44,528 nucleotides of DNA. It comes from a virus. Position 1 is the stretch's first letter. Each line of letters begins with the position of its first letter. The stretch lies in the IMG/VR virus record IMGVR_UViG_3300010231_000015. One strand, given 5' to 3'. The notes beneath the pieces are model-generated. The model searched no databases, had not been told where the DNA came from, and saw only the letters and a list, made by a program, of their open reading frames with translations. The position numbers and the translations under genes were made by a program. Below are positions 4,606-37,100 of the stretch, one piece after another.

Positions 4606-5028
4606 TCAAACTCCAATGAAGTAGGCTTCGCAGTGCTTGACAGCACCCGCCCGCTCATAGAGCCTGCTAAGTCCCGGCCTCAGCACTCCGTTACCTGAGA
4701 TAACGCCAATGCAGCCGTTGACCTTGGCGATGTACCGCATGCCCTCGATAGCGTCGTTGAACGTACCACCGGGCAATGCTCGGGTCAGCAGGAACTCGTA
4801 AAGCAATTCCTGTTTGCTGCTCCACGGCGCACCAACGTCATAGACGAGCAGATACCCGTCCATCAGCGCAGCGCGCAGTTCCCCACGCTTCAGCCTACCC
4901 CACACGATGCCGGGCGAGTTAGGGACTACGAAGGGATGAGACGCCATGCGTTTGCCGTGAGCGATAAGAGCCCTCATCGCTGCCAGCTTCTGCGCGGCAT
5001 CCCACTCACCAAACGGGACGACCTTCAT
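4606..5028 (-). CDS. Hypothetical protein (weak GNAT-like C-terminal pattern, unverified)
   Basis: 140-aa ORF with an ATGA start/stop overlap to the upstream gene. The segment ...GNGVLRPGLSRLYERAGA... loosely resembles acetyltransferase motifs A/B. Confidence 0.6.
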   Translation of the reverse strand: MKVVPFGEWDAAQKLAAMRALIAHGKRMASHPFVVPNSPGIVWGRLKRGELRAALMDGYLLVYDVGAPWSSKQELLYEFLLTRALPGGTFNDAIEGMRYIAKVNGCIGVISGNGVLRPGLSRLYERAGAVKHCEAYFIGV

Positions 5029-5249
5029 CGGCGCACCCGTTGCTTAATGTGCAGGATCACCGAGCGCTGGCCCGCAGAATGGCGTAGCTGTGCGTCGGTA
5101 GTAGTTCCACTGGCGACGCACTCGGGAAACACCGTTTCCAGATACGCGAGTTGCTGGGCTGTGAAGGCTACGTCCCTCAAGTTGTTGGCGTTCGTAAGAT
5201 CGCCCACATCGTTGAGGATGTCCTGTTGTGACAAACGTGTTGCTGTCAA
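5025..5249 (-). CDS. Hypothetical protein, first gene after the RNAP-distal spacer
   Basis: The track ORF runs to ATG 5294, but an AGGAGG (5262..5257) sits 7 nt upstream of TTG 5249, giving 74 aa. An ATG 5294 start cannot be excluded. Confidence 0.55.
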   Translation of the reverse strand: MTATRLSQQDILNDVGDLTNANNLRDVAFTAQQLAYLETVFPECVASGTTTDAQLRHSAGQRSVILHIKQRVRR

Positions 5250-5294
5250 GGTATGGCCTCCTAAACGCAAAGTGCCACGCCCTGCGATGTACAA

Positions 5295-5310
5295 GGTGTG
5301 GCACTCTTAG
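5295..5310 (-). promoter_or_regulatory. Motif-2 copy b (minus strand CTAAGAGTGCCACACC), a candidate phage-RNAP promoter
   Basis: Near-identical to 5421..5436 and to 27431..27447 on the plus strand. It lies about 45 nt upstream of the first late gene, and its GTGGCACT also forms one arm of an 8-bp hairpin with 5271..5278. Confidence 0.45.
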
Positions 5311-5420
5311 TAACCTGTTAGATACTGGATTACTCTATGTGTATCTCAGAGTAATACCTGTATGTACCTCTGTTTAATACTGTGTATCTCTGTCTCTCTT
5401 TCCTTCTCACCTTCGTTCAA
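5311..5420 (-). other. AT-rich spacer with GAGATACACA repeats and an 8-bp hairpin, a candidate replication origin or UTR
   Basis: GC content is visibly far below the genome norm. Minus-strand GAGATACACA occurs twice. ATTACTCT (5329..5336) pairs with AGAGTAAT (5348..5355) around an 11-nt loop. No ORF. Confidence 0.5.
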
Positions 5421-5436
5421 AGTGTGGCACTCTAAG
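5421..5436 (-). promoter_or_regulatory. Motif-2 copy a (minus strand CTTAGAGTGCCACACT), a candidate phage-RNAP promoter
   Basis: It abuts the RNAP stop codon (5437..5439) and is followed, in the direction of transcription, by the AT-rich block. Confidence 0.45.
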
Positions 5437-7866
5437 TCAACAGAAGAAGAACTCACTGTTCTTAATCTCTTGAAGGTTAAGACTACTCTTCTTCGGAGCC
5501 TCACCAGTACCACCTACTTCCCACAGGAAGTCTAGTAATACATCATTGTGAGTATAGAGATTGACAAATTCCTCTCTGAGTATGGAATTCATCTGCGCTA
5601 CATCACAAGGGTGCGTACCGAACGAGTCATGGATTGCTACCATCTGCAAGCCTTCCTTGTTCATCCTGTTAGCTGTCATGGTTAGGTGACTAGCATCTAA
5701 GGCATGCACGAAGTTAGGCGCTATGGCGTTCTGCATCTTGCTCGGGTTAGTAGAGTCCAAGGGCTCATAGATCATCACCCGATTCACACCACACGAGTTA
5801 ATGCGTACACGAACCTGCTCTACGTCTTGGTAATCGTGCTGCACCTTAAACCCGGTGGGTGTTGTCCATTCCATGCGCTGCCCTTTCGGTACAGTGCGGC
5901 ATGCTTCCTTCAACCAGCGCATTGCTTGCGCTGCCGCTGGGACCGTTGCCTCGATACCGCTGAATAGCATCTTTGCCCCGTAGGTTGCCACGTCGCAATT
6001 GCGCTGCCCTTCGAGCTTCACGTCCTCGCGGTCGTGCAAGGCTTCCTGCTCCAAGAACTCGGCGGTCCCGCGCAGCGTCGCGCCGTAGACGTAGGTCATG
6101 ACCGGCTTCTTGGCCTGAGAACGCGTTATACCGGCTCGGAGCCAGTGGTCCCTAGCTACCCCTTCGGCTCGCTGTCGGAGCGCCTCCACGGCCTCATTTG
6201 CCACCTTCGTGTAGATGTCCTGCTTGGCATCCCCGCCCGAGTCGAACAGGTTGACGTACTTGCCGCCAATCGGGTCGCGGAGCATGGCGCTGAAGTGCTG
6301 AAGGCCCGAGCATGTCGCGTCCTGATGGCACGGTACGCCCGTCTCATACGTCGCCGGGTTCCCGCTGCGGTACGCTTCACGAAGCTCCCACGCGGCGGCG
6401 AACATGCACCACGGCGAGTCACCCCACACGTCAGGGTGGTTTTCCGGCTCGTCAAGGGCTCGCTCAATCTCGGCCCAATGCTCATCCACCCAGCGAACGC
6501 GGGCCGCTGTGCGAGCCTTGTCGAAGCCGTAGGAGTTGGCGATCTGCACCTTGAGCGCGTCCACGCCGTACCGGCCTAGTGGCTTCTTGTCTGCGAAGTG
6601 CAACGCGCCCTTGGCTACGTCCGTGCCCTGCGGGTTCGGCGTGCCGTTGTAGTACCAGCGGCCTCGGGTATCCATCATCACGGAGAACCACAGGCGGGAC
6701 GTGTCGCGCAGCCCGAGCTTCAGGAACCCGGCGATCTCCTGCGTGTGGCCTCGCCACTTCTTCATGTCGGTGTAGTACTGCGTCATGGTCCGTTTCCAAG
6801 CCATGAACAGGGCCTTCTCGGCCTCGGTGCCGTCCTCCTTGATCCAATCCTCGGGCAAGGGAAACGGCGGCTTGGCGGGCTTCTCACGGCTCGGCAGGCC
6901 CATCGTGTTACCACCGCCCTGCCACGCCCTGCGGATAGCTTCGAGCGTCGGCTGATGCACCGTGTACGGGATCGACTGAAGGTAGTTGGCGCAGGCGAAA
7001 ACCTGCGGCATCTTCTCGGCAGTGAACTGCTCGCGGATACGGCGCTTCTCCGAGCGGCGCACGCGGCGCAAGCTCATGAGCGGGAACGCCTGCTGACGGC
7101 GCACGCTGAGATAGCCGCCGCCGTCCAAGCGCTCCCACGGCAGCGGCGGGCACTGCATGGCCCCTGCCCCACGATCCACGATACCATGCACGTCGCTTTG
7201 GTCGTAGTCGTTGAGGTAGTCCGCAATCTCGACCTCAAGCTGATAGATGACCATGCCACCGGGCATCGTCACCGGCTTCACGAGGCCCGCGAGGTAGCAG
7301 GCATCGAGTCCGAACTTGCCGACTTGTATGCACTCGCTATCCGACAGCGAGCTATCGAGTTCGCCCTTCATGACACGATCATATGCCACGTTGTACAGAC
7401 GGCGAAGGTGACCATAATCGACCGTGCCGTTGCGGCGTACTTGGTCGTGAATCTTCTCCATGTACATCGGGTTGACTTCCTCGGCCTCAGCGATGCGAAC
7501 CTCAGTCTCATACAGACGACCGATGCGCACGCAAAGCATCTGCGCTGACGCCACTGCGCGGCGAGTCTTAGCTCCTGAGTCCGAACACTGCGAGATACAC
7601 TCACGCATGGCGATGAGCGCGGCCTTGTCTGCCCCGACGCGGCGCACCCATGCCTTGTACTTGCCACCAGTGCCGCGTGTCTTTACGTCCATTTCCACGG
7701 CGATGAGGTCACGCACCGTGGCGAACATCTTGGCGGTAAGACGCTGGGCTCGCGGAGCCTCGGCGTCACCCGACGCAGCCGCGTCCTGCAACTCCTTCAA
7801 TCGTGCAACAGCAGCCTCGCTATCGCACTTCAACTCATAAGCTAGTTGCATGTCCTGCGGCGTCAT
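5437..7866 (-). CDS. Single-subunit DNA-directed RNA polymerase (T7 RNAP family)
   Basis: 809 aa. AGGAGG RBS before ATG 7866. Carries ...KKPVMTYVYGAT... (motif B-like) and ...VAIHDSFGTH... (motif C). Its position at the end of the DNA-metabolism block is the phiKMV-type arrangement. Confidence 0.95.
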   Translation of the reverse strand: MTPQDMQLAYELKCDSEAAVARLKELQDAAASGDAEAPRAQRLTAKMFATVRDLIAVEMDVKTRGTGGKYKAWVRRVGADKAALIAMRECISQCSDSGAKTRRAVASAQMLCVRIGRLYETEVRIAEAEEVNPMYMEKIHDQVRRNGTVDYGHLRRLYNVAYDRVMKGELDSSLSDSECIQVGKFGLDACYLAGLVKPVTMPGGMVIYQLEVEIADYLNDYDQSDVHGIVDRGAGAMQCPPLPWERLDGGGYLSVRRQQAFPLMSLRRVRRSEKRRIREQFTAEKMPQVFACANYLQSIPYTVHQPTLEAIRRAWQGGGNTMGLPSREKPAKPPFPLPEDWIKEDGTEAEKALFMAWKRTMTQYYTDMKKWRGHTQEIAGFLKLGLRDTSRLWFSVMMDTRGRWYYNGTPNPQGTDVAKGALHFADKKPLGRYGVDALKVQIANSYGFDKARTAARVRWVDEHWAEIERALDEPENHPDVWGDSPWCMFAAAWELREAYRSGNPATYETGVPCHQDATCSGLQHFSAMLRDPIGGKYVNLFDSGGDAKQDIYTKVANEAVEALRQRAEGVARDHWLRAGITRSQAKKPVMTYVYGATLRGTAEFLEQEALHDREDVKLEGQRNCDVATYGAKMLFSGIEATVPAAAQAMRWLKEACRTVPKGQRMEWTTPTGFKVQHDYQDVEQVRVRINSCGVNRVMIYEPLDSTNPSKMQNAIAPNFVHALDASHLTMTANRMNKEGLQMVAIHDSFGTHPCDVAQMNSILREEFVNLYTHNDVLLDFLWEVGGTGEAPKKSSLNLQEIKNSEFFFC

Positions 7867-12608: not shown

Positions 12609-13310
12609 TTAAAGCAGGTTCGGGTAAAGCTCGTTCAGATGCTCGATGACCTTCTCGACCTCAGAGAAAGTCGCCTGTGTCGCTGCCTGATACGACCGGG
12701 GTTGCCGTGTCGGAACAGCGGGTTGACCGGGAATCACGACGCGGTTATCCACCAGCATCCCCGTTGCCTCGGCAGACAACAGGATCGTGCAGCACGCCTT
12801 GATCGCGCCAAGGTGATGCACGAGTTCCTTCGGGTCCACACGCTCACCGCTGGCGTACTGCAAGCAGTGCCGCATGATCGCGCCGATATACGTCATCAAC
12901 TCGACCGGCGTCTGCAAGTAGTTGTTCTCGCCGTACTTCCGCTTACCGGCGTGCAGCGCTGCCGACTCGTGAAGCTGGGCGATCATGTGGATCAGATGCA
13001 GCGGCGGCTTCTTGTCGCCGTACCGCTGCTTCGGGTTAGTCGGCGCGGTCGAGTTCGGGTGTGGTGGGCCGGGGTACAGCCTGTCCTTCAGCACGTCCCC
13101 GAGATTTGGCGCACAAGGTATGGCATCCTTAACGACCGTCGGAAACGGCTCGAAGCGGCTGACGTGCAGTTCTTCCGTGATCCCGTCGAGCAGCACGTAG
13201 TTAGGCCCGCGCGCCTCCCGAACTCGGTACACCTTGCCCTTCATCAACTTCTCGGGGCAATTACCAGCCCACGTACACACGACATAATCACCACGTTTAA
13301 ACAGATTCAA
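12609..13310 (-). CDS. SH3-like N-terminal domain plus a dATP/dGTP pyrophosphohydrolase-like (DUF5664-type) domain
   Basis: 233 aa. TTG start at 13310 with a GGGAGG RBS and a TTGA overlap with the DNAP stop. KPPLHLIHMIAQLHESAALHAGKRKYGENNY...IMRHCLQYASGERVDPKELVHHLGA fits the ..GxxKY..xNW...RH...GE..D.. pattern. Confidence 0.5.
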   Translation of the reverse strand: MNLFKRGDYVVCTWAGNCPEKLMKGKVYRVREARGPNYVLLDGITEELHVSRFEPFPTVVKDAIPCAPNLGDVLKDRLYPGPPHPNSTAPTNPKQRYGDKKPPLHLIHMIAQLHESAALHAGKRKYGENNYLQTPVELMTYIGAIMRHCLQYASGERVDPKELVHHLGAIKACCTILLSAEATGMLVDNRVVIPGQPAVPTRQPRSYQAATQATFSEVEKVIEHLNELYPNLL

Positions 13311-15853
13311 GCAGCCCTCCCGTATAGCTTCTCGACAGTCGCCGGATCATTCAGCACGCCTTCGTGCCAGTGCAACTTGTCTTTCATGTTGAGGCCGAAC
13401 TCCGCAGCAGCGGGGAACGGGACGTTGAGGTTGTAGCCGTACTTCTCGCTGAAGTAGCGCGGCAAGTCCTCCATGATCGCCTTGATACCGGCAAGCACGA
13501 TGTCCAGTACCGAGTGGTGACAATCGACGTAGATAGCATCGTGAACCGTATTAATCACGAACACGCGCCCGCCGAAGAAGTCGTTAGCGATGAGCCAACG
13601 AATCACACGGCCACTGATACCCTGCACGAAGAAGCCTGACTCGCCCTGAATCGGGTAGTTGCGCATCTGCGTCGGCTTGAACTCCATGACTTGCACGCGC
13701 TTGCGTTGCCCGCCTTCGAACACAGTGCGAACCTTCTCGTACTCGCGGAACTCGTAGCACGTACCGCCCACGGCCTTATAATGGCCACGGCCATACACGC
13801 GCCACTCACCACTGTCCGTCTGCTCCCGGAACAACTGACGTGTCGCCGCAACCATCGGGAACACTTCCTGATCGAAGTACGCTTCGACTCCGGGGAACAG
13901 TGCCTTCTCGCGGTCAATAAACGCCTGAGCTTCTTCGACCGGCATACCCGTAGAGAACGAGATACCCATAGCCGTAGCGCCGTACTGGTACGCAAACGCA
14001 GGCGGCTTGATGTCCGTCCGCATCGCATCGTACTTCGCATGCTCAGGGTGATCTTGGTTCTTGCACTTCTCCAAGACAGATTCATACGGCTCCCCGAGCT
14101 TCGCACTCAAGCGCAGGCAGTGCATGTCGATCTTGTCGAGCAGCGCCTTGATGAGTTGCTTGTCCTGAGAGAACGCCGCAAGCGTCACGACTTCTAGCGC
14201 GCTGTAGTCCAGTTCGCAAATAAAGCCGTTCTTGATGCCCCGCTTGATTTCGTCCATGCACAGGTCGAAGAACTCCTGCCCTATGAGGCCGACGCCCAGC
14301 GCGTAGATGAGCCACTTTGGAGACGAGAACCGCGACACGAACATGGCCTTCACGTCGCTCGTGTTACCACGCGGCAGGTTCTGGAAGTTCGGGCGGTTAG
14401 ACGACAGCCGCGTTGTCGCGGTCGCCGTTGTGTTCAACGTGTGATGCACGATGTTCAGGTCGTCCATGTACTGCAACATACCCGACACCTTCACCACGTT
14501 GCCCTCGTCGTCGTACTCCTTGCGCAAGTAGTACGTACCCATGTCCTTGTCCACCTTGTTGAAGGTATCCAAGTCCGTCAGCACCTTGCGGACGTTCTCC
14601 GGGAACTCCTTGCGCTTCGTCAGGAACTCTAACGAATCCTTGCCGGTGGCGATGACGGGCGACTCGTCGGCCAGCTTACGCTTGCCGGTGAACTCCTTCA
14701 GGAACTCCTCGCGGATCGTCTCGCTCAGCAGCGAGAGGTCGCACAGCGGCGGCGCATGATACAGGGTGTCCTCCCATATCAGTTTCTGCGTCGTCGTGTC
14801 CTCCCGAGTGACCTTGATGAGCCCCTTGTTCTTGCCGCTCTTGTAGCGTTCGAACGTGAAGCCGTGGTCGAACCCGGCAGTCTCCGGGTCTTTCCACTCG
14901 ATGCGCTCTTGCGGTGTGCCGCTGTCCATCAGCACAGGCATGTGCCCCTGCTCGTTGAGGAACACGGTCATCGCAACCGGGCCGGTCATCTTAACGGCGT
15001 CGCCCTTCTCCCATACCGGCGTACCGTCATCGTTGAACTTGGGCACGCGGTGCCGGTACTTGATCGGTCCGCCGAACAGCCACGCGCTCATGTGGAAGTC
15101 GCTCGTCTCCTTGAATTCCAACGCGCCGGGATAGCCACCACGGTATGCACGGAACGACTCACGCAGCGAGGCGATCTTGGCCTCACCTTCCTCAAGCTGC
15201 CGGAACGCAACCTCGGTGTCGATGAGCAGGCCCGAGTCCATCGCGTAGCAATTGAACAGCAGGCCCTCCATGCGCTCAAGCGCCATGTCCCACATGCCAC
15301 GCTCGGTAAGCTGCTGATACTGGCCGTAGAAGATGGTCCGCGTGTTCGCCACGTCGCCATGCGTCGGGCTGATGAGGTACTCCAACAGAAGCGCCGGGTC
15401 AATCTCAGACGTGAGTTTGCCCTGCTCCCACAGCGCCTTAACGCCGTCCACCTTGTGCGTCCCGCCGTACAACGGCGCAATCTCGTTGAGCGCCGGGTAC
15501 GTGTCCCGCTGATTGCTGAGCAGGTAGTGGGCGTAGGCCGTACAGAAGATGCGCCCGCCACGCTTCAGGAACTTATGAAGCTCCTGCCGCTGCTGCACGA
15601 GAGACCAGTCCAGTTCGAACGCGGCGTTGTGCATGACGATGAGCCACGCATCATCCGGGATCGAGAGCCAAGGCCGACTCGCGGCCTGTTCTTTCGACTC
15701 GTTGCGTATGTACTCGATAGCGCCGTCATACGGCTGCGTGTCGATGGCCCAGCCGTTCAGCACCACGTAGTTATCAGGACAACGCGGAGAGGCGACAGCG
15801 CCGAACCACGGCTTGTTCTCCGTCTCCAAGTCCCAAAACATGATGCGGCTCAT
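13307..15853 (-). CDS. DNA polymerase, family A, with 3'-5' exonuclease domain
   Basis: Start moved to ATG 15853 (GGGAGGA RBS, ATGA overlap with the ligase stop). 848 aa. Exonuclease motifs FWDLETE and NAAFELDW. Polymerase motifs DYSALEV (A), RTDIKPPAFAYQYGAT (B) and NTVHDAIYVD (C). Confidence 0.92.
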   Translation of the reverse strand: MSRIMFWDLETENKPWFGAVASPRCPDNYVVLNGWAIDTQPYDGAIEYIRNESKEQAASRPWLSIPDDAWLIVMHNAAFELDWSLVQQRQELHKFLKRGGRIFCTAYAHYLLSNQRDTYPALNEIAPLYGGTHKVDGVKALWEQGKLTSEIDPALLLEYLISPTHGDVANTRTIFYGQYQQLTERGMWDMALERMEGLLFNCYAMDSGLLIDTEVAFRQLEEGEAKIASLRESFRAYRGGYPGALEFKETSDFHMSAWLFGGPIKYRHRVPKFNDDGTPVWEKGDAVKMTGPVAMTVFLNEQGHMPVLMDSGTPQERIEWKDPETAGFDHGFTFERYKSGKNKGLIKVTREDTTTQKLIWEDTLYHAPPLCDLSLLSETIREEFLKEFTGKRKLADESPVIATGKDSLEFLTKRKEFPENVRKVLTDLDTFNKVDKDMGTYYLRKEYDDEGNVVKVSGMLQYMDDLNIVHHTLNTTATATTRLSSNRPNFQNLPRGNTSDVKAMFVSRFSSPKWLIYALGVGLIGQEFFDLCMDEIKRGIKNGFICELDYSALEVVTLAAFSQDKQLIKALLDKIDMHCLRLSAKLGEPYESVLEKCKNQDHPEHAKYDAMRTDIKPPAFAYQYGATAMGISFSTGMPVEEAQAFIDREKALFPGVEAYFDQEVFPMVAATRQLFREQTDSGEWRVYGRGHYKAVGGTCYEFREYEKVRTVFEGGQRKRVQVMEFKPTQMRNYPIQGESGFFVQGISGRVIRWLIANDFFGGRVFVINTVHDAIYVDCHHSVLDIVLAGIKAIMEDLPRYFSEKYGYNLNVPFPAAAEFGLNMKDKLHWHEGVLNDPATVEKLYGRAA

Positions 15854-20657: not shown

Positions 20658-21046
20658 GCCTTGTCAGCGTCCTTGTGAGTCGTCACCATGATGCTTGCGA
20701 CGTGCTTGTTGTGGATGATGTGGACGCCCTTGTTGTTGACGCCCGCATGGGTGATGCGCCCTTGGATCGCAGGCAGGCCGTCTGCCATGATCGGGGAGCC
20801 GCGCTTCTGGTGGAACGCCGCGTTGCGTGTGCAGCGGAAGCGCTTCTCGCGACGCAACTGCGAACGCTGGGCGCGGTTCGGGTAGAACTCGGGCGTCGCC
20901 TCGACCGGCTCGGGCTTGGGCAGTTTGTCCCACAGGCCGCGCTCGATAGTGCCAAGCTCGTCGCTGATAGCTTGCGCCTCGTGGGTCTTGAAGCGGCCCG
21001 TAACGCTGAGCGCGCCGAGCAGTCGATTACCAATGTTGCCGAACAT
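20654..21046 (-). CDS. Hypothetical protein
   Basis: 130 aa. AAGGAG RBS 4 nt before ATG 21046. Confidence 0.65.
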   Translation of the reverse strand: MFGNIGNRLLGALSVTGRFKTHEAQAISDELGTIERGLWDKLPKPEPVEATPEFYPNRAQRSQLRREKRFRCTRNAAFHQKRGSPIMADGLPAIQGRITHAGVNNKGVHIIHNKHVASIMVTTHKDADKA

Positions 21047-21196
21047 AGGGCTCCTTATCGGGGTCTGTTGTTGTTGCGAAACTGGCCCGGTCGCAGACGA
21101 GTGTCATGCAAACGGGTATCGGGCGGCGTGCGCAGTGCTGCCTTGCGTGCTTCCTGCATCCACGCAGGCTCACGGCGCAACGCGTCAGCGAACGTG

Positions 21197-21565
21197 TCAG
21201 GCTTCTGCATGCTCGGTCGCCTTCTTGCGGACAATCGTAAGCTCGTCCTCGAACGACTTGAGCGCCGCGATCACAGCGTCGCGCGCCGTGTCGTGGTCCT
21301 TCTCGATAGCCTTCTTGGTTGCTTCGAACGCGGCCTGTGCAGCAGCCAATGCGCGCTGATAGTCAACCTTCGCGTCGAGCATGCGGGCTCGCGTTTCAAC
21401 GCCGATGTCCTGCAACTCTTTGCGCTTCAACGCGCTGCGCTTGGCAACGTCATTGAAGTGGTTGTTCAGTGCGGTTGCGTGCAGGCCGTGCAGCGTGTCA
21501 TACAACACGATGGCCGCTTGATGCAGGGCTTCGGTGATGCGAGCCGAGATACGTGCTGCGCTCAT
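21197..21565 (-). CDS. Hypothetical helical / coiled-coil protein
   Basis: 122 aa. AGGAG RBS. Motif-1 copy D lies 16 nt upstream. Confidence 0.65.
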   Translation of the reverse strand: MSAARISARITEALHQAAIVLYDTLHGLHATALNNHFNDVAKRSALKRKELQDIGVETRARMLDAKVDYQRALAAAQAAFEATKKAIEKDHDTARDAVIAALKSFEDELTIVRKKATEHAEA

Positions 21566-26990: not shown

Positions 26991-27001
26991 CTACTTATTT
27001 G

Positions 27002-27027
27002 CTAGGTGCTAACCCTTAGATGCTTAG
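27002..27027 (-). repeat. Conserved upstream element, copy 1 (plus strand CTAGGTGCTAACCCTTAGATGCTTAG)
   Basis: Matches 27173..27198 at 25 of 26 positions. It sits at the same offset (171 nt period) from the -35 of P1 as copy 2 sits from P2. Confidence 0.8.
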
Positions 27028-27133
27028 GTACTACATGGTTGCAGTCTGAGCTACGGTACAAGGCATCAACTTTGTGTGAGCCGTACTAGCTAACCCACTC
27101 CTTACTGCGCTGTTCACTGCAACCACAGAACGG

Positions 27134-27161
27134 ATTGTATAGAGTCTACAGACGATTGCAA
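27134..27161 (-). promoter_or_regulatory. Sigma70-type early promoter P2 (TTGCAA-16-TACAAT)
   Basis: The -35 is at 27161..27156 and the -10 TACAAT at 27139..27134, both on the minus strand. Confidence 0.6.
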
Positions 27162-27172
27162 GCACTATTTCA

Positions 27173-27202
27173 CTAGGTGCTAACCCTTAGCTGCTTAGCA
27201 CC
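27173..27202 (-). repeat. Conserved upstream element, copy 2, containing an 8-bp inverted repeat (GGTGCTAA-n11-TTAGCACC)
   Basis: Arms at 27176..27183 and 27195..27202. Overlaps the stop codon of the 68-aa gene. Could act as an operator or as an RNA hairpin. Confidence 0.75.
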
Positions 27203-27393
27203 TTACGACCACGGTTAGTTCCTGCTCTACGCTTAGCCTGTAGTGCTTTAACCTGTTCCTTAGCAAAGGCTTCTGCCTGTTCCTTAGCAACCTGTTCCTC
27301 TATACCACTAGCTACTAACTCCCGGAGCTTACCAGCATACAGAGCATGGTATCTGCGCTGGTCAGCCCTAAGCCTATCCATTGATGCACCCAT
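27187..27393 (-). CDS. 68-aa highly charged helical early protein
   Basis: AGGAG 5 nt upstream of ATG 27393. Sequence MGASMDRLRADQRRYHALYAGKLRELVASGIEEQVAKEQAEAFAKEQVKALQAKRRAGTNRGRKVLSS. It is the first ORF in the sense direction within the terminal non-coding region. Confidence 0.65.
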   Translation of the reverse strand: MGASMDRLRADQRRYHALYAGKLRELVASGIEEQVAKEQAEAFAKEQVKALQAKRRAGTNRGRKVLSS

Positions 27394-27430
27394 AGTATCT
27401 CCTATCTATCTATGTGCTAACCAGTTTACA

Positions 27431-27452
27431 TTAGAATGCCACACTGTGGAAG
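27431..27452 (+). promoter_or_regulatory. Motif-2 copy c on the plus strand (TTAGAATGCCACACTGTGGAAG)
   Basis: 15 of 16 identical to minus-strand 5435..5420 (TTAGAGTGCCACACTT). It points away from all genes, into the GATACA-rich AT block. Confidence 0.45.
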
Positions 27453-27480
27453 CAGTCCAAAGCGATGAGCGGCGAGCCGA

Positions 27481-27651
27481 CAGGCGATACACGCGAAGCA
27501 AGACAGGATACATAGAGCTATACCATGTATGACATAGAGATACATAGATAGATACATAGATCACACTGTGTATGAGATAGATAGACACAGGATTAACACA
27601 CATGTATGCGAGCGATAAGAAACAGATAGCGCACACACTCAAGCGAGCGAA
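27481..27651 (+). repeat. AT-rich GATACATAGA-type repeat block bounded by GCGAGCCGA direct repeats
   Basis: GATACATAGAT(A) is tandem at 27539..27561. Related copies lie at 27507..27517 and 27531..27540, and GAGATAGATAGAC at about 27574. GCGAGCCGA occurs at 27472..27480 and 27652..27660. Confidence 0.75.
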
Positions 27652-27850
27652 GCGAGCCGAGTGTTAATACCTAAGCTCTGATGTCCTCCATATCCATAGA
27701 AGTGTAAATCCCATCATCACGCTTGCTATCATGCGCTGGATGTGCTAGGTGCATGCGCTGTGTAGCTGCTAGGCAACGTGAGCCAAGCCTGTTAGCACTT
27801 GACATAATGTACGTTAGCAACCACTAGGGTAGACACCTAGCATCTAGCGC

Positions 27851-34111: not shown

Positions 34112-37100
34112 TTACTTCGATTGCTGCCCGTCCTTCAGCGTCTCGGCCATTGCTTTAACGCCGGGGATGATAGACAGCAGCGGGATTGAATTGATAGCAC
34201 CCGATGCGGCGGTGCCGAACTGCCCGTTAGCCAACGAGCTACCAGTCTTGTACAGCCGGTCGATTGCCATAAGGCCACTAGCGCCGAACTGCTGCTTGTC
34301 GCCGGATGCAACGCCCCACAGTTCCGACAGCAGGCCCATAGCACCCATCTGAGATAGGGCCGTGCTTGCTGCCGTGTTGAGGTCGAGCGGACCTTGGCCC
34401 TTGAGCATCGAGTTCGCTTGCGATGCGAGCATCGTCAGCGGGAACTGATACATCATGAGCAAGCCCATACCGCCGAAGCCTTCACGGCCTAGCGATCCAG
34501 CAAGCACCTTGTTATGCGCGCCGAGGACGAACGAGCGGAACGTGAAGATGAACTTGCCCACGCTAGAGAATTGCGCGAACGCGGGAATCTCGCCTGTTCT
34601 ATTCTTCAGCACCGCGTCATCCATCATCTTGCCAAGCGGGCCTCGAATCTGTGCCCACGTTGCATCGGACCATGCTGCCGTATTCAGGCCATTGGCCTTG
34701 ATGTCAGCAGCAACACTGCTCAAGGTATGGCCCTCTAAGCCGTACTTCGCAAGAGCCTGCTGCGCAGCCTTGTCGCCCAACGCACCCTTATGGAATACGT
34801 CCGCGACGAGATTACCGACAACGCGTGCTTGGTTGTGGTGGATGTAGTGCATCGCATTGATATACGGCACGATCTGCTTAGCCTGCTGCAACGACAGTCC
34901 AACGTGATCGCCCAAGCTCATTTCGAAGTTGTCCTCCATCTTTTGAATGTAAGGGCGAATCCGAAGGTCTTGCGACGAGTTGCGCGCGAGGATAGCGGCG
35001 AGCGATGCAGGGTCATGGTCGGCACCACCCATCAACGTCTTAAAGACCGGCAGGGTTCGCATGATCTCTTTCGTAGTCTTGATGAGACCGTACTTAGCCA
35101 TAGCGTTGGAGTACTCAGTCAACTGCCACAGGCCCGAGCCCGACAATCCCACCATCTGCGTGATTGCAGCGAGACGACGCATACCGTCACCGACTTCATC
35201 ACCAACCGGCTGACCCTTGATCGACGCAATGATGTTGTCGAACAGGGCCGCAGCTTTCTTGCGTGATCCCTCGTCGGCAACACCGTGCAGGAACTCGGTA
35301 CGCAGTTGGTCGATAGCCGTGGACGTATTAAGCGGCACGTCCTCACCCTTGGCGTTCTTGAACGACTTACGCGCGAGCGCTGAGTTGCCAGCAGCGTTGT
35401 CCAAGTAGCCGTCGAGGTTGCGTGCGACGTTCGTATCCAGCAAGTCCATCACCGAGATACGCGAGCCGTCTGCGAGTTGCAGGCTGTGCGACGTGTCCAT
35501 CGCAACGCGGTGCTTCAGTGCCGACGCCTTGCCTGCCTCGTCGGTTACGCCGGTGATGACTTCCATCGCCTTCTGGATACGGTCAGCCGTGATACCGGGA
35601 GTCTGCGCGAGGATGTCGCGCACTTCCTTGGCACCGCTGTTGCCAACGTGACCACGGAACGCTTGGTCCTCGAAGTACCCCTTACGGCGCGCGCGCTCGA
35701 TGATCGCAGCGGCGACATCAGAGATAGCATCGGCGTCCCACATAGGGTTAGCCTTCTGGATCGCAGAGGCAACCATCTTTCGGACTACGGAACGTGACTG
35801 CTTCTCCGTCACACCGTTGGCTGCGGCGATGCGATTCTCCATGTCCTCAATCTGCGTGACGCTCCACTTGCGCGGCGCATACCCAGCAGCTTCGTCCACA
35901 GCATCAGCACCCATCACACCAGCGGCCTGCATTTCCTTCAGCGCTTGCGCGGTTGCTGCATCGTGCGCATCGGCCAGCTTCGTAATCATCGGGTCTACTG
36001 ACGGATCAGCAGTCGGCAGGCCACGGCGAGCCGCAGTGTTACGGCGTTGCAGTTCAGCGTAGACTTGCTTCTCGATGTCGTGCTGAATCTCAGCAGACTT
36101 ACGCGGATTCAGGATGCGGTTACGCAACCCAGCACCACGCGATGCCATTGCTTCCTTCAGGCCGTCCTCATAGCGATACTGCAACTGCGAGAGGTCCGAG
36201 CGGATAGCCTGCTTCTGCGACACCACCGAATCGCCCGTCATGTTGACCGGATCATCAACCAGCAAGTCGGCAACCTTCTTGCCTGCGCTGCCGAGGCCGC
36301 TCACGGTCTTGTGCAATGACCACGAGATAGCGTTACCCGTCTTGGCTGCTGCGGATTCCATGCGCTTAACGATGGTCGCGGCCTGCTGTCCCGGCGTACC
36401 GGTAGGTGCAGTAGCGGGAGCGCTGTGCAGGCTCATACCCGGAACCTCGGCTGTGCCCTCGACCTTCACATTGAGCTTCGTGTTGATGAGTTCGTCGGTG
36501 AGGCCCAGCGCGCGCGTGAGCGCGTTCGTCTGCGTCGGCGGAATGCCCAACAGCTTGCGCACCGTGTCCACCATCTTCGAGAGCATGTTAGGCGCGCGTG
36601 AGCCCGCACCGACAGGCATACGTGAGAGGATCGTAGGCAAGCCGCCAATGTTGCCTGAGTACAAACCAGCGACGAACTCGTTCAGGTTCTTCGTGAGATA
36701 CGTCGCATCGTGAAGCTGAGACGCCGTGAGTCCCTCTGCGTCCTTCAGCCATACCCGCGTGCGGTTCAGCAAGTCCTGCAACTCAGCCGTGATCCTGCCG
36801 TGAGCCGTGCCGGGGTTCGCCATACCAAAAGCCAGCTTGTGAACCGTGAGACCGTGCATGACTTCGTGAAGCGCTGCGAACGCGCTCAGGTTCCGCTGAG
36901 GGAAGTGCGGGTTCGCTGCCATGTGTTCGGCAGTCGGCATGTGGACGCTGTGTGAGCCTGCCGAGTAGAACGGCGTAGCATTCCTATCCAGTTCCGACTC
37001 CATGACCTTGAGCTTGTTCAGCAGGTCAGGTTGTTCCTCGCGTAGCACGCGAATCATCGGGCCGAACTCGGCATCGTCCTCGAAGCGTCCGAGGTAGGTG

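Follow-up and report, generated by a model that had tools for sequence, protein, structure and literature searches.

Tandem putative phage promoters in the spacer behind the RNA polymerase gene of a phiKMV-like podovirus

The IMG/VR virus record IMGVR_UViG_3300010231_000015, whose 44,528 nucleotides (nt) are referred to here as the window, is a complete-length phiKMV-like podovirus genome (Autographiviridae, 44.5 kb) that carries essentially all of its genes on the minus strand. The spacer behind its RNA polymerase (RNAP) gene, the subject of this analysis, contains two copies of a motif that is very similar in sequence and position across a clade of related phages. The RNAP open reading frame (ORF) ends with a TGA stop codon at 5439..5437, and its product is most closely related to the RNAPs of the Ralstonia phages RSB3 and phiAp1 and the Variovorax phage VAC_51 among named phages (66-68% amino acid identity), sharing 42% identity with that of LKA1 and 36% with that of phiKMV. 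On the other side of the spacer, the first gene starts with the TTG at 5249 (5249..5247), as set by protein alignment with ten orthologues, and is preceded by the ribosome-binding site (RBS) AGGAGG at 5262..5257. PHROG matches assign the genes that come after it: behind one for a 140-amino-acid protein without assigned function lie those for virion structural protein(s), portal (head-tail adaptor), scaffold and major capsid protein. Because of this gene order, the spacer marks the point at which the DNA-metabolism module ends and the virion module begins, just as in phiKMV. The genes and the main non-promoter features of the spacer are:

5437..7866, minus strand: single-subunit (T7-like) RNA polymerase gene, 809 amino acids (Pfam PF00940/PF14700; T7 RNAP structures matched with E=1.8e-70)
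5312..5400, minus strand: AT-rich leader block with AGATAC-type short repeats; inverted GTATCT around 5320..5325
5329..5355, minus strand: small AT-rich hairpin, ATTACTCT-GAGATACACAT-AGAGTAAT, -9.8 kcal/mol with flanking bases
5262..5305, minus strand: terminator-like hairpin, arms 5305..5292 and 5284..5271, followed by UUUGCGUUU, -25.5 kcal/mol
5025..5249, minus strand: first gene past the spacer, 74 amino acids, conserved, PHROG 6575

The original prediction had described a motif directly behind the RNAP stop codon (CTTAGAGTGCCACACT, 5436..5421), a second copy further downstream (CTAAGAGTGCCACACC, 5310..5295) and an AT-rich block with a hairpin between them, and every sequence and coordinate that it gave for the spacer was correct on re-check. 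When lengthened to 23 nt, the copies agree at 20 positions (5437..5415 versus 5311..5289); across 300 Markov-shuffled versions of the spacer, no 23-mer repeat exceeded 18 of 23. Behind the first copy, about 90 nt have a guanine-plus-cytosine (GC) content of only 37-40%, compared to 59% for the window, and fall in its second-lowest 100-nt stretch. This block contains GAGATACACA twice, at 5390..5381 and 5347..5338, and the perfect 8-bp hairpin 5329-5336/5348-5355. The pairing of the second copy with 5271..5278 is likewise real, but the stem covers 14 positions rather than the 8 bp first assigned to it. When folded as RNA, the whole spacer has a z-score of -3.55. Neither host sigma-70 promoters nor, in a simple consensus scan, canonical intrinsic terminators were found in 4900..5700, and no Rfam covariance model matched within 4900..5800 with E up to 1.

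Ten relatives were available for comparison, comprising three complete genomes (RSB3, phiAp1 and VAC_51) and seven metagenomic contigs, with RNAPs that are 62-78% identical to that of the window. They were gathered by protein search and subsequent contig look-ups; peptide-pattern scans of viral, metagenome and genome contigs returned almost no further relatives. The motif of this clade reads TTAGAGTGCCAC-N3-TTGG and spans roughly 19 bp. A position weight matrix (PWM) built from 44 sites of the relatives, without any window sequence (22.5 bits, consensus TTAGAGTGCCACCCTTTGGA), identifies exactly four sites with at least 21 bits in the window, while chance alone would give 0.02 sites per genome at or above 18 bits. 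Shuffled sequences reach a best score of 10.4 bits on average, compared to 29.1 bits for the copy behind the RNAP gene. These four sites and one degenerate copy are:

5416..5435, minus strand: putative promoter copy A (P_A), TTAGAGTGCCACACTTTGAA, 29.1 bits; begins 1 nt past the RNAP stop; predicted +1 G at 5418
5290..5309, minus strand: putative promoter copy B (P_B), TAAGAGTGCCACACCTTGTA, 21.2 bits; begins 127 nt past the RNAP stop; predicted +1 G at 5292
34719..34738, minus strand: structural-region copy, TTAGAGGGCCATACCTTGAG, 22.3 bits; within the gene of the 1332-amino-acid internal virion protein, 626 nt before the gene end
27431..27450, plus strand: antisense early-region copy (P_L), TTAGAATGCCACACTGTGGA, 23.5 bits; directed away from the genes
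5245..5264, minus strand: degenerate third copy, TTAGGAGGCCATACCTTGAC, 12.4 bits; overlaps the RBS (5262..5257) and the TTG start

The closest relative, L013, has its gene-proximal copy (TTTAAGAGTGCCACACTTTGGAGTACACATG) at the same place as P_B, to which it corresponds. The third copy, which reads TTAGGAGGCCATACCTTG at 5264..5247, had been missed by the original prediction and is probably a decayed promoter, because a transcript from it would begin at the start codon. A further weak match of 12-17 bits is present at 13112..13131 on the minus strand (TAAGGATGCCATACCTTGTG), in the ORF that follows the DNA polymerase gene, and may represent either a weak middle promoter or a coincidental match.

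In all ten relatives, one copy of the motif lies 0-15 nt past the RNAP stop codon and the last copy abuts the start of the small gene, where its TTGGAG doubles as Shine-Dalgarno sequence 6-9 nt upstream of the ATG. All ten spacers also have an AT-rich middle part with short repeats and small hairpins. An iterative PWM scan of the eleven genomes yielded 55 matches at conserved places, 49 of them in sense orientation; the six antisense matches include four instances of the conserved left-end copy and one that makes up half of a palindrome in RSB3. This palindromic motif pair, TTAGAAGCCCACC-CTAT-GGTGGCACTCTAA at RSB3 15382..15411, is located between ORF25 and the exonuclease gene, with a hairpin, terminator or bidirectional element as its possible roles. 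The box CCCTACT(C/A)ACAAT is found 10-25 nt upstream of the last motif copy in the relatives L005, L015, L016, L018 and L019, and only in degenerate form in the window (CCAGTATCTAACAGG, about 5312..5326). The small gene itself is present and conserved in all relatives, including RSB3 (21018..21242), where it is not annotated in the record, leaving an apparent gap of 456 nt behind the RNAP gene.

Intragenic copies, such as a 20-nt motif in the nozzle gene, are invariant, and the flanking third-codon positions vary. The structural-region site is common to RSB3, VAC_51 and phiAp1, and an identical TTA leucine codon with its flanking bases is present in all four complete genomes; the phiAp1 site carries phiAp1's own variant of the motif. 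This argues that selection acts on the motif as DNA and not on the encoded protein. The site lies 608 nt before the gene end in RSB3 and 611 nt in VAC_51. Counterparts of P_L are found in antisense orientation at RSB3 518, phiAp1 614 and VAC_51 5155, and at phiKMV 728. Some relatives contain additional, perfectly conserved copies upstream of the capsid gene (TTAGAGGGCCACCCATTGGAGTAATGGGCG; VAC_51 30220, L015 16113, L016 8220, L018 8776, L019 6728) and in the nozzle gene (TTACTGTGCCATCCTTTGGAG; e.g. RSB3 28147).

The specificity loop of the RNAP, which corresponds to T7 residues 739-770, hardly varies among genomes with a GTGCCAC core and is altered in phiAp1/L014 and L017, where the motifs deviate as well. 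This is suggestive of a co-variation between loop and motif. The Achromobacter phage Axy21 (L022, 68..330), whose RNAP is 48% identical, has the same layout of twin motifs that flank an AT-rich block, with a different motif, ATTA(A/G)AGCCGG(A/G)CATACTGG, and with different AT-rich repeats of the GTAGTATAG and GTATGTACTAC types.

The distribution of the four sites follows that of experimentally mapped promoters. Analysis of LUZ19 by ONT-cappable-seq revealed four phage-specific promoters with a common 20-bp motif, a pattern that is also found in 15 other Phikmvvirus species; one LUZ19 promoter, P001, was mapped by experiment in antisense orientation (Putzeys et al. 2024, PMC10914365). In phiKMV, the LUZ19-type motif is located at +20491, 6 nt past the stop codon, and at +20677, +34955 and -728. 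Both in these phages and in the window, the four sites are found behind the RNAP stop, shortly downstream thereof, within the internal-virion-protein gene and in antisense orientation at the left end. The correspondence includes the position within the internal-virion-protein gene, as phiKMV +34955 is 624 nt and window 34738 is 626 nt away from the end of the homologous genes. The initiation segment C.CAT(A/T)GGAG is common to the window and phiKMV, and so is the low GC content of the spacer behind the RNAP gene, which is the single lowest-GC window in phiKMV. The second copy follows the first by 126 nt in the window and by 186 nt in phiKMV, and it precedes a small gene here, while it lies within the small gene in phiKMV. 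The recognition half differs, with TTAGAGTGCCAC in place of the GgtTATGTCAC of LUZ19, and the gap between CAC and GG is 5 instead of 7 nt. The specificity of the motif is particular to the clade, as expected for an RNAP that is 36% identical to that of phiKMV.

The RNAP of phage KP34 initiates in vitro, with support from rapid amplification of cDNA 5' ends (5'-RACE), from the strong promoter T(A/G)ATGTTACAGGAGTA, which lies 5 nt past its own gene and has a +1 G; the structural region holds another copy and so does the area close to the left end (Lu et al. 2019, PMC6834552). A promoter directly behind the RNAP gene and a small number of promoters per genome would be common to KP34 and the window. 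The KP34 element is nevertheless unrelated in sequence and shorter (16 nt), and no tandem copy in the spacer was described. A second, weak KP34 promoter is located within the RNAP gene, and evidence for a counterpart of it is absent from the window.

The window motif matches neither the LUZ19 consensus GgtTATGTCACacACAnnGG nor the KP34 consensus beyond the initiation segment. Promoters of the SP6/K11 type (ATTTAGGTGACACTATAG, AATTAGGGCACACTATAG) share with the motif the TTAG start and a G-rich/CAC core at a similar distance from the +1 G; unlike the motif, which has TTG(G) at this place, they contain a TATA melting box. The SP6 likeness of the core noted in the original prediction amounts to six of eight matching bases, but only after a shift by 1 nt, and is weak. 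In its initiation region, the motif is closer to the phiKMV promoter.

Judged from these sequence comparisons, P_A and P_B are very probably cognate promoters of the phage's own single-subunit RNAP, which launch the late genes. The promoter part of the original prediction, which had proposed either a phage promoter or the primary replication origin, is thereby borne out by conservation at the same place in ten relatives, the predominant sense orientation, and recurrence at the LUZ19 and phiKMV promoter positions. Host-driven transcription would first yield the phage RNAP, which would then bind TTAGAGTGCCAC-N3-TTGG, start at G 5418 (P_A) and G 5292 (P_B), and transcribe the structural genes over long distances. 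Further initiation would take place in sense orientation at 34738 within the internal-virion-protein gene and in antisense orientation at 27431, at the left end. The AT-rich block would be the transcribed leader of P_A. Motif position 18 is a G, usually followed by a second G, in nearly all copies, and we infer that it represents +1 from this invariance and because KP34 and T7-type enzymes start at G.

Several points weigh against this interpretation. The motif departs from the LUZ19 and KP34 consensus upstream of about -8, and the homology to the mapped promoters accordingly rests on position and initiation region. The exact +1 is a prediction by register with T7, KP34 and LUZ19, and the co-variation of specificity loop and motif comes from three or four lineages only. 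With just four strong sites, the window has neither the copy upstream of the capsid gene nor the one in the nozzle gene that some relatives carry, and both are likewise missing from its closest relative L013, so the conserved sites are not all essential. Finally, the tail UUUGCGUUU of the terminator-like hairpin is a weak, interrupted U-tract, and this hairpin was not picked up by the simple terminator scan.

The core of P_B is at the same time the 5' arm of the terminator-like hairpin, whose stem of 14 positions contains one mismatch and one G-U pair. Hairpins with U-rich tails are found at the same place in the spacers of phiAp1 (-19.6 kcal/mol), L014 (-20.1 kcal/mol) and L017 (-40.8 kcal/mol), where a middle copy of the motif precedes the hairpin and the U-tract; these are stronger terminator candidates than that of the window. 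The tail TTTGCGTTTAG is common to the phiAp1, L014 and window hairpins, and the window hairpin is the counterpart of the middle-copy hairpin and U-tract of these relatives. RNAs that start at P_A, or that read through from the RNAP gene, could fold the hairpin and be attenuated. RNAs born at P_B would lack the 5' arm, form no hairpin and pass into the late genes. Such a promoter-in-terminator arrangement would insulate late transcription from transcription that arrives from upstream.

The AT-rich block has a counterpart at the other putative promoter that is followed by AT-rich DNA, P_L:

27451..27680, plus strand: left-end leader module downstream of P_L, consisting of a GC-rich conserved block (AAGCGATGAGCGG...GCAAGACAGG) and AT-rich GATACA repeats

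Sense GATACA/TACACNAG matches occur four times in the genome, two of them inside the AT-rich block (expected 0.02), and the only other cluster in the window lies downstream of P_L. In the window as well as in VAC_51, these repeats cluster in both modules only. AT-rich inverted repeats, read by eye from the spacer sequences, are present at the place corresponding to the small hairpin in VAC_51, L015, L016 and L018. The left-end module contains the lowest-GC 100-nt window of the genome (27501, 35%) and shares homology with the spacers behind the RNAP gene in the relatives, so that two inverted copies of the module exist per genome. Of the GC-rich block, the RNAP-downstream spacer of the window itself retains only a GA-rich remnant, and in this it closely resembles the spacer of phiKMV. 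A short leader hairpin in the conserved block (alignment columns 38-40/51-53; window 27470-27485) shows compensatory changes at all three pairs, is 97% paired and occurs in the variants GGUUC-GAAA-GGACC, GAC-GAAA-GUC and GCC-GACA-GGC; none of 500 shuffles reached the observed score. This covariation indicates that the conserved block functions as RNA, which would fit its being transcribed from the neighbouring promoter. The idea that the GC-rich leader of the relatives forms a large conserved RNA structure was also considered and rejected, as RNAalifold assigned it only -3.8 kcal/mol, just the 3-bp hairpin core covaries and the block is absent from the window spacer.

A further box, AAAAGAGACAGATAGCGC (AAGAAACAGATAGCGC in the window, about 27620-27640), is found approximately 190 nt downstream of the antisense promoter and is also present in RSB3, VAC_51 and phiAp1. 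In phiAp1, its position at about 412-430, which is an offset estimate, falls on the edge of the 416-bp terminal repeat annotated there; because of this coincidence, the antisense promoter of phiAp1 would transcribe into the terminal repeat.

The combination of promoter and AT-rich unit could also serve as a T7-style, transcription-primed replication origin, with P_A transcripts being handed over to the phage DNA polymerase in the melted block and the left-end module acting as a second, opposite origin. The primary origin of T7 is reportedly formed, according to work of the Richardson laboratory, by the tandem promoters phi1.1A and phi1.1B and an AT-rich region downstream of gene 1, and the tandem promoters and AT-rich stretch directly past the RNAP gene resemble this layout. 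The two lowest-GC 100-nt windows are the RNAP spacer and the region by the antisense promoter in all four complete clade genomes, and both modules hold a promoter, a conserved leader and GATACA-type repeats. In phiKMV, the RNAP spacer likewise has the lowest GC content, but the left-end region was not seen among the lowest-GC windows. Unlike in the T7 origin, the AT-rich block lies between the two promoters and not after both, and the RNAP gene is found mid-genome by the virion genes (the phiKMV order) and not about 15% into the genome. In RSB3 and VAC_51, moreover, the AT-rich window at the left end is located at or upstream of the antisense promoter instead of downstream. GC skew is monotonic without inflection at either module and hence uninformative, and AT-rich spacers are expected from a promoter and leader function alone. 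The features of the spacer fit a promoter-leader module equally as well as a T7-like origin, and no report on origins in phiKMV-like phages was found in the searchable literature. An origin at this place is considered unlikely. The same doubt applies to the broader proposal that the two inverted promoter-leader modules of each genome, with promoter, leader containing the covarying hairpin, and AT-rich repeats, constitute a transcription-primed origin pair or the source of a conserved non-coding leader RNA.

The AGATAC-type repeats could instead be operator or iteron sites, at which a phage or host DNA-binding protein would tune or time P_A and the antisense promoter as a roadblock or activator. 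Their clusters are confined to both modules, in both orientations, in the window and in VAC_51, their sequence is lineage-specific, with Axy21 differing at the same place, and a MarR-family regulator is annotated in phiAp1. Against this, the repeats are short (6-9 nt), lie in low-complexity AT-rich DNA that is prone to repeats, vary in number and spacing between relatives, and form no cluster in RSB3 and phiAp1 at the threshold used. An operator function of the repeats is thus rather improbable. Another repeat family is present in the early region at 26994..27422 (plus-strand coordinates), where four 21-nt repeats of the CTATTTCACTAGGTGCTAACC family, 100-170 nt apart, may be early promoter or regulatory elements ahead of small early genes.

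That the motifs are no promoters at all but halves of RNA hairpins (terminators or RNase processing sites), chance matches or duplication remnants is very hard to believe: copy B does pair with the downstream inverted copy, and RSB3 has its palindromic pair, but an inverted partner is lacking for copy A, for the structural-region copy and for the majority of copies in the relatives, the conserved element is a directional 19-nt sequence ending in TTGG that a hairpin half would not need, its distribution copies that of mapped promoters, and chance is excluded by the PWM expectation and the spacer shuffles.

Tandem promoters behind the RNAP gene, and the phiKMV-type promoter set as a whole, are of an already established kind. 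For the clade of RSB3, phiAp1 and VAC_51, no report on phage promoters was found and the motif string occurs in no paper of the searchable literature; the records of the three phages do not annotate such promoters, that of phiAp1 listing host promoters only. A concrete consensus is now available for a Burkholderiales-infecting, phiKMV-like clade that includes these phages and many uncultivated relatives. A genome-wide mining study of 2025 arrived at no definite promoter prediction for 741 of 1757 RNAP-encoding phage genomes. A new pair of RNAP and promoter is also potentially useful as an orthogonal expression system. Neither a promoter embedded in a terminator stem nor the inverted duplication of a promoter-leader module was found described in the literature examined, and an origin pair or a leader RNA, if true, would be an undescribed function for phiKMV-like phages. 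The comparison further indicates that the four-promoter layout of LUZ19 is kept position for position down to 36% RNAP identity, including the intragenic site about 625 nt from the gene end.

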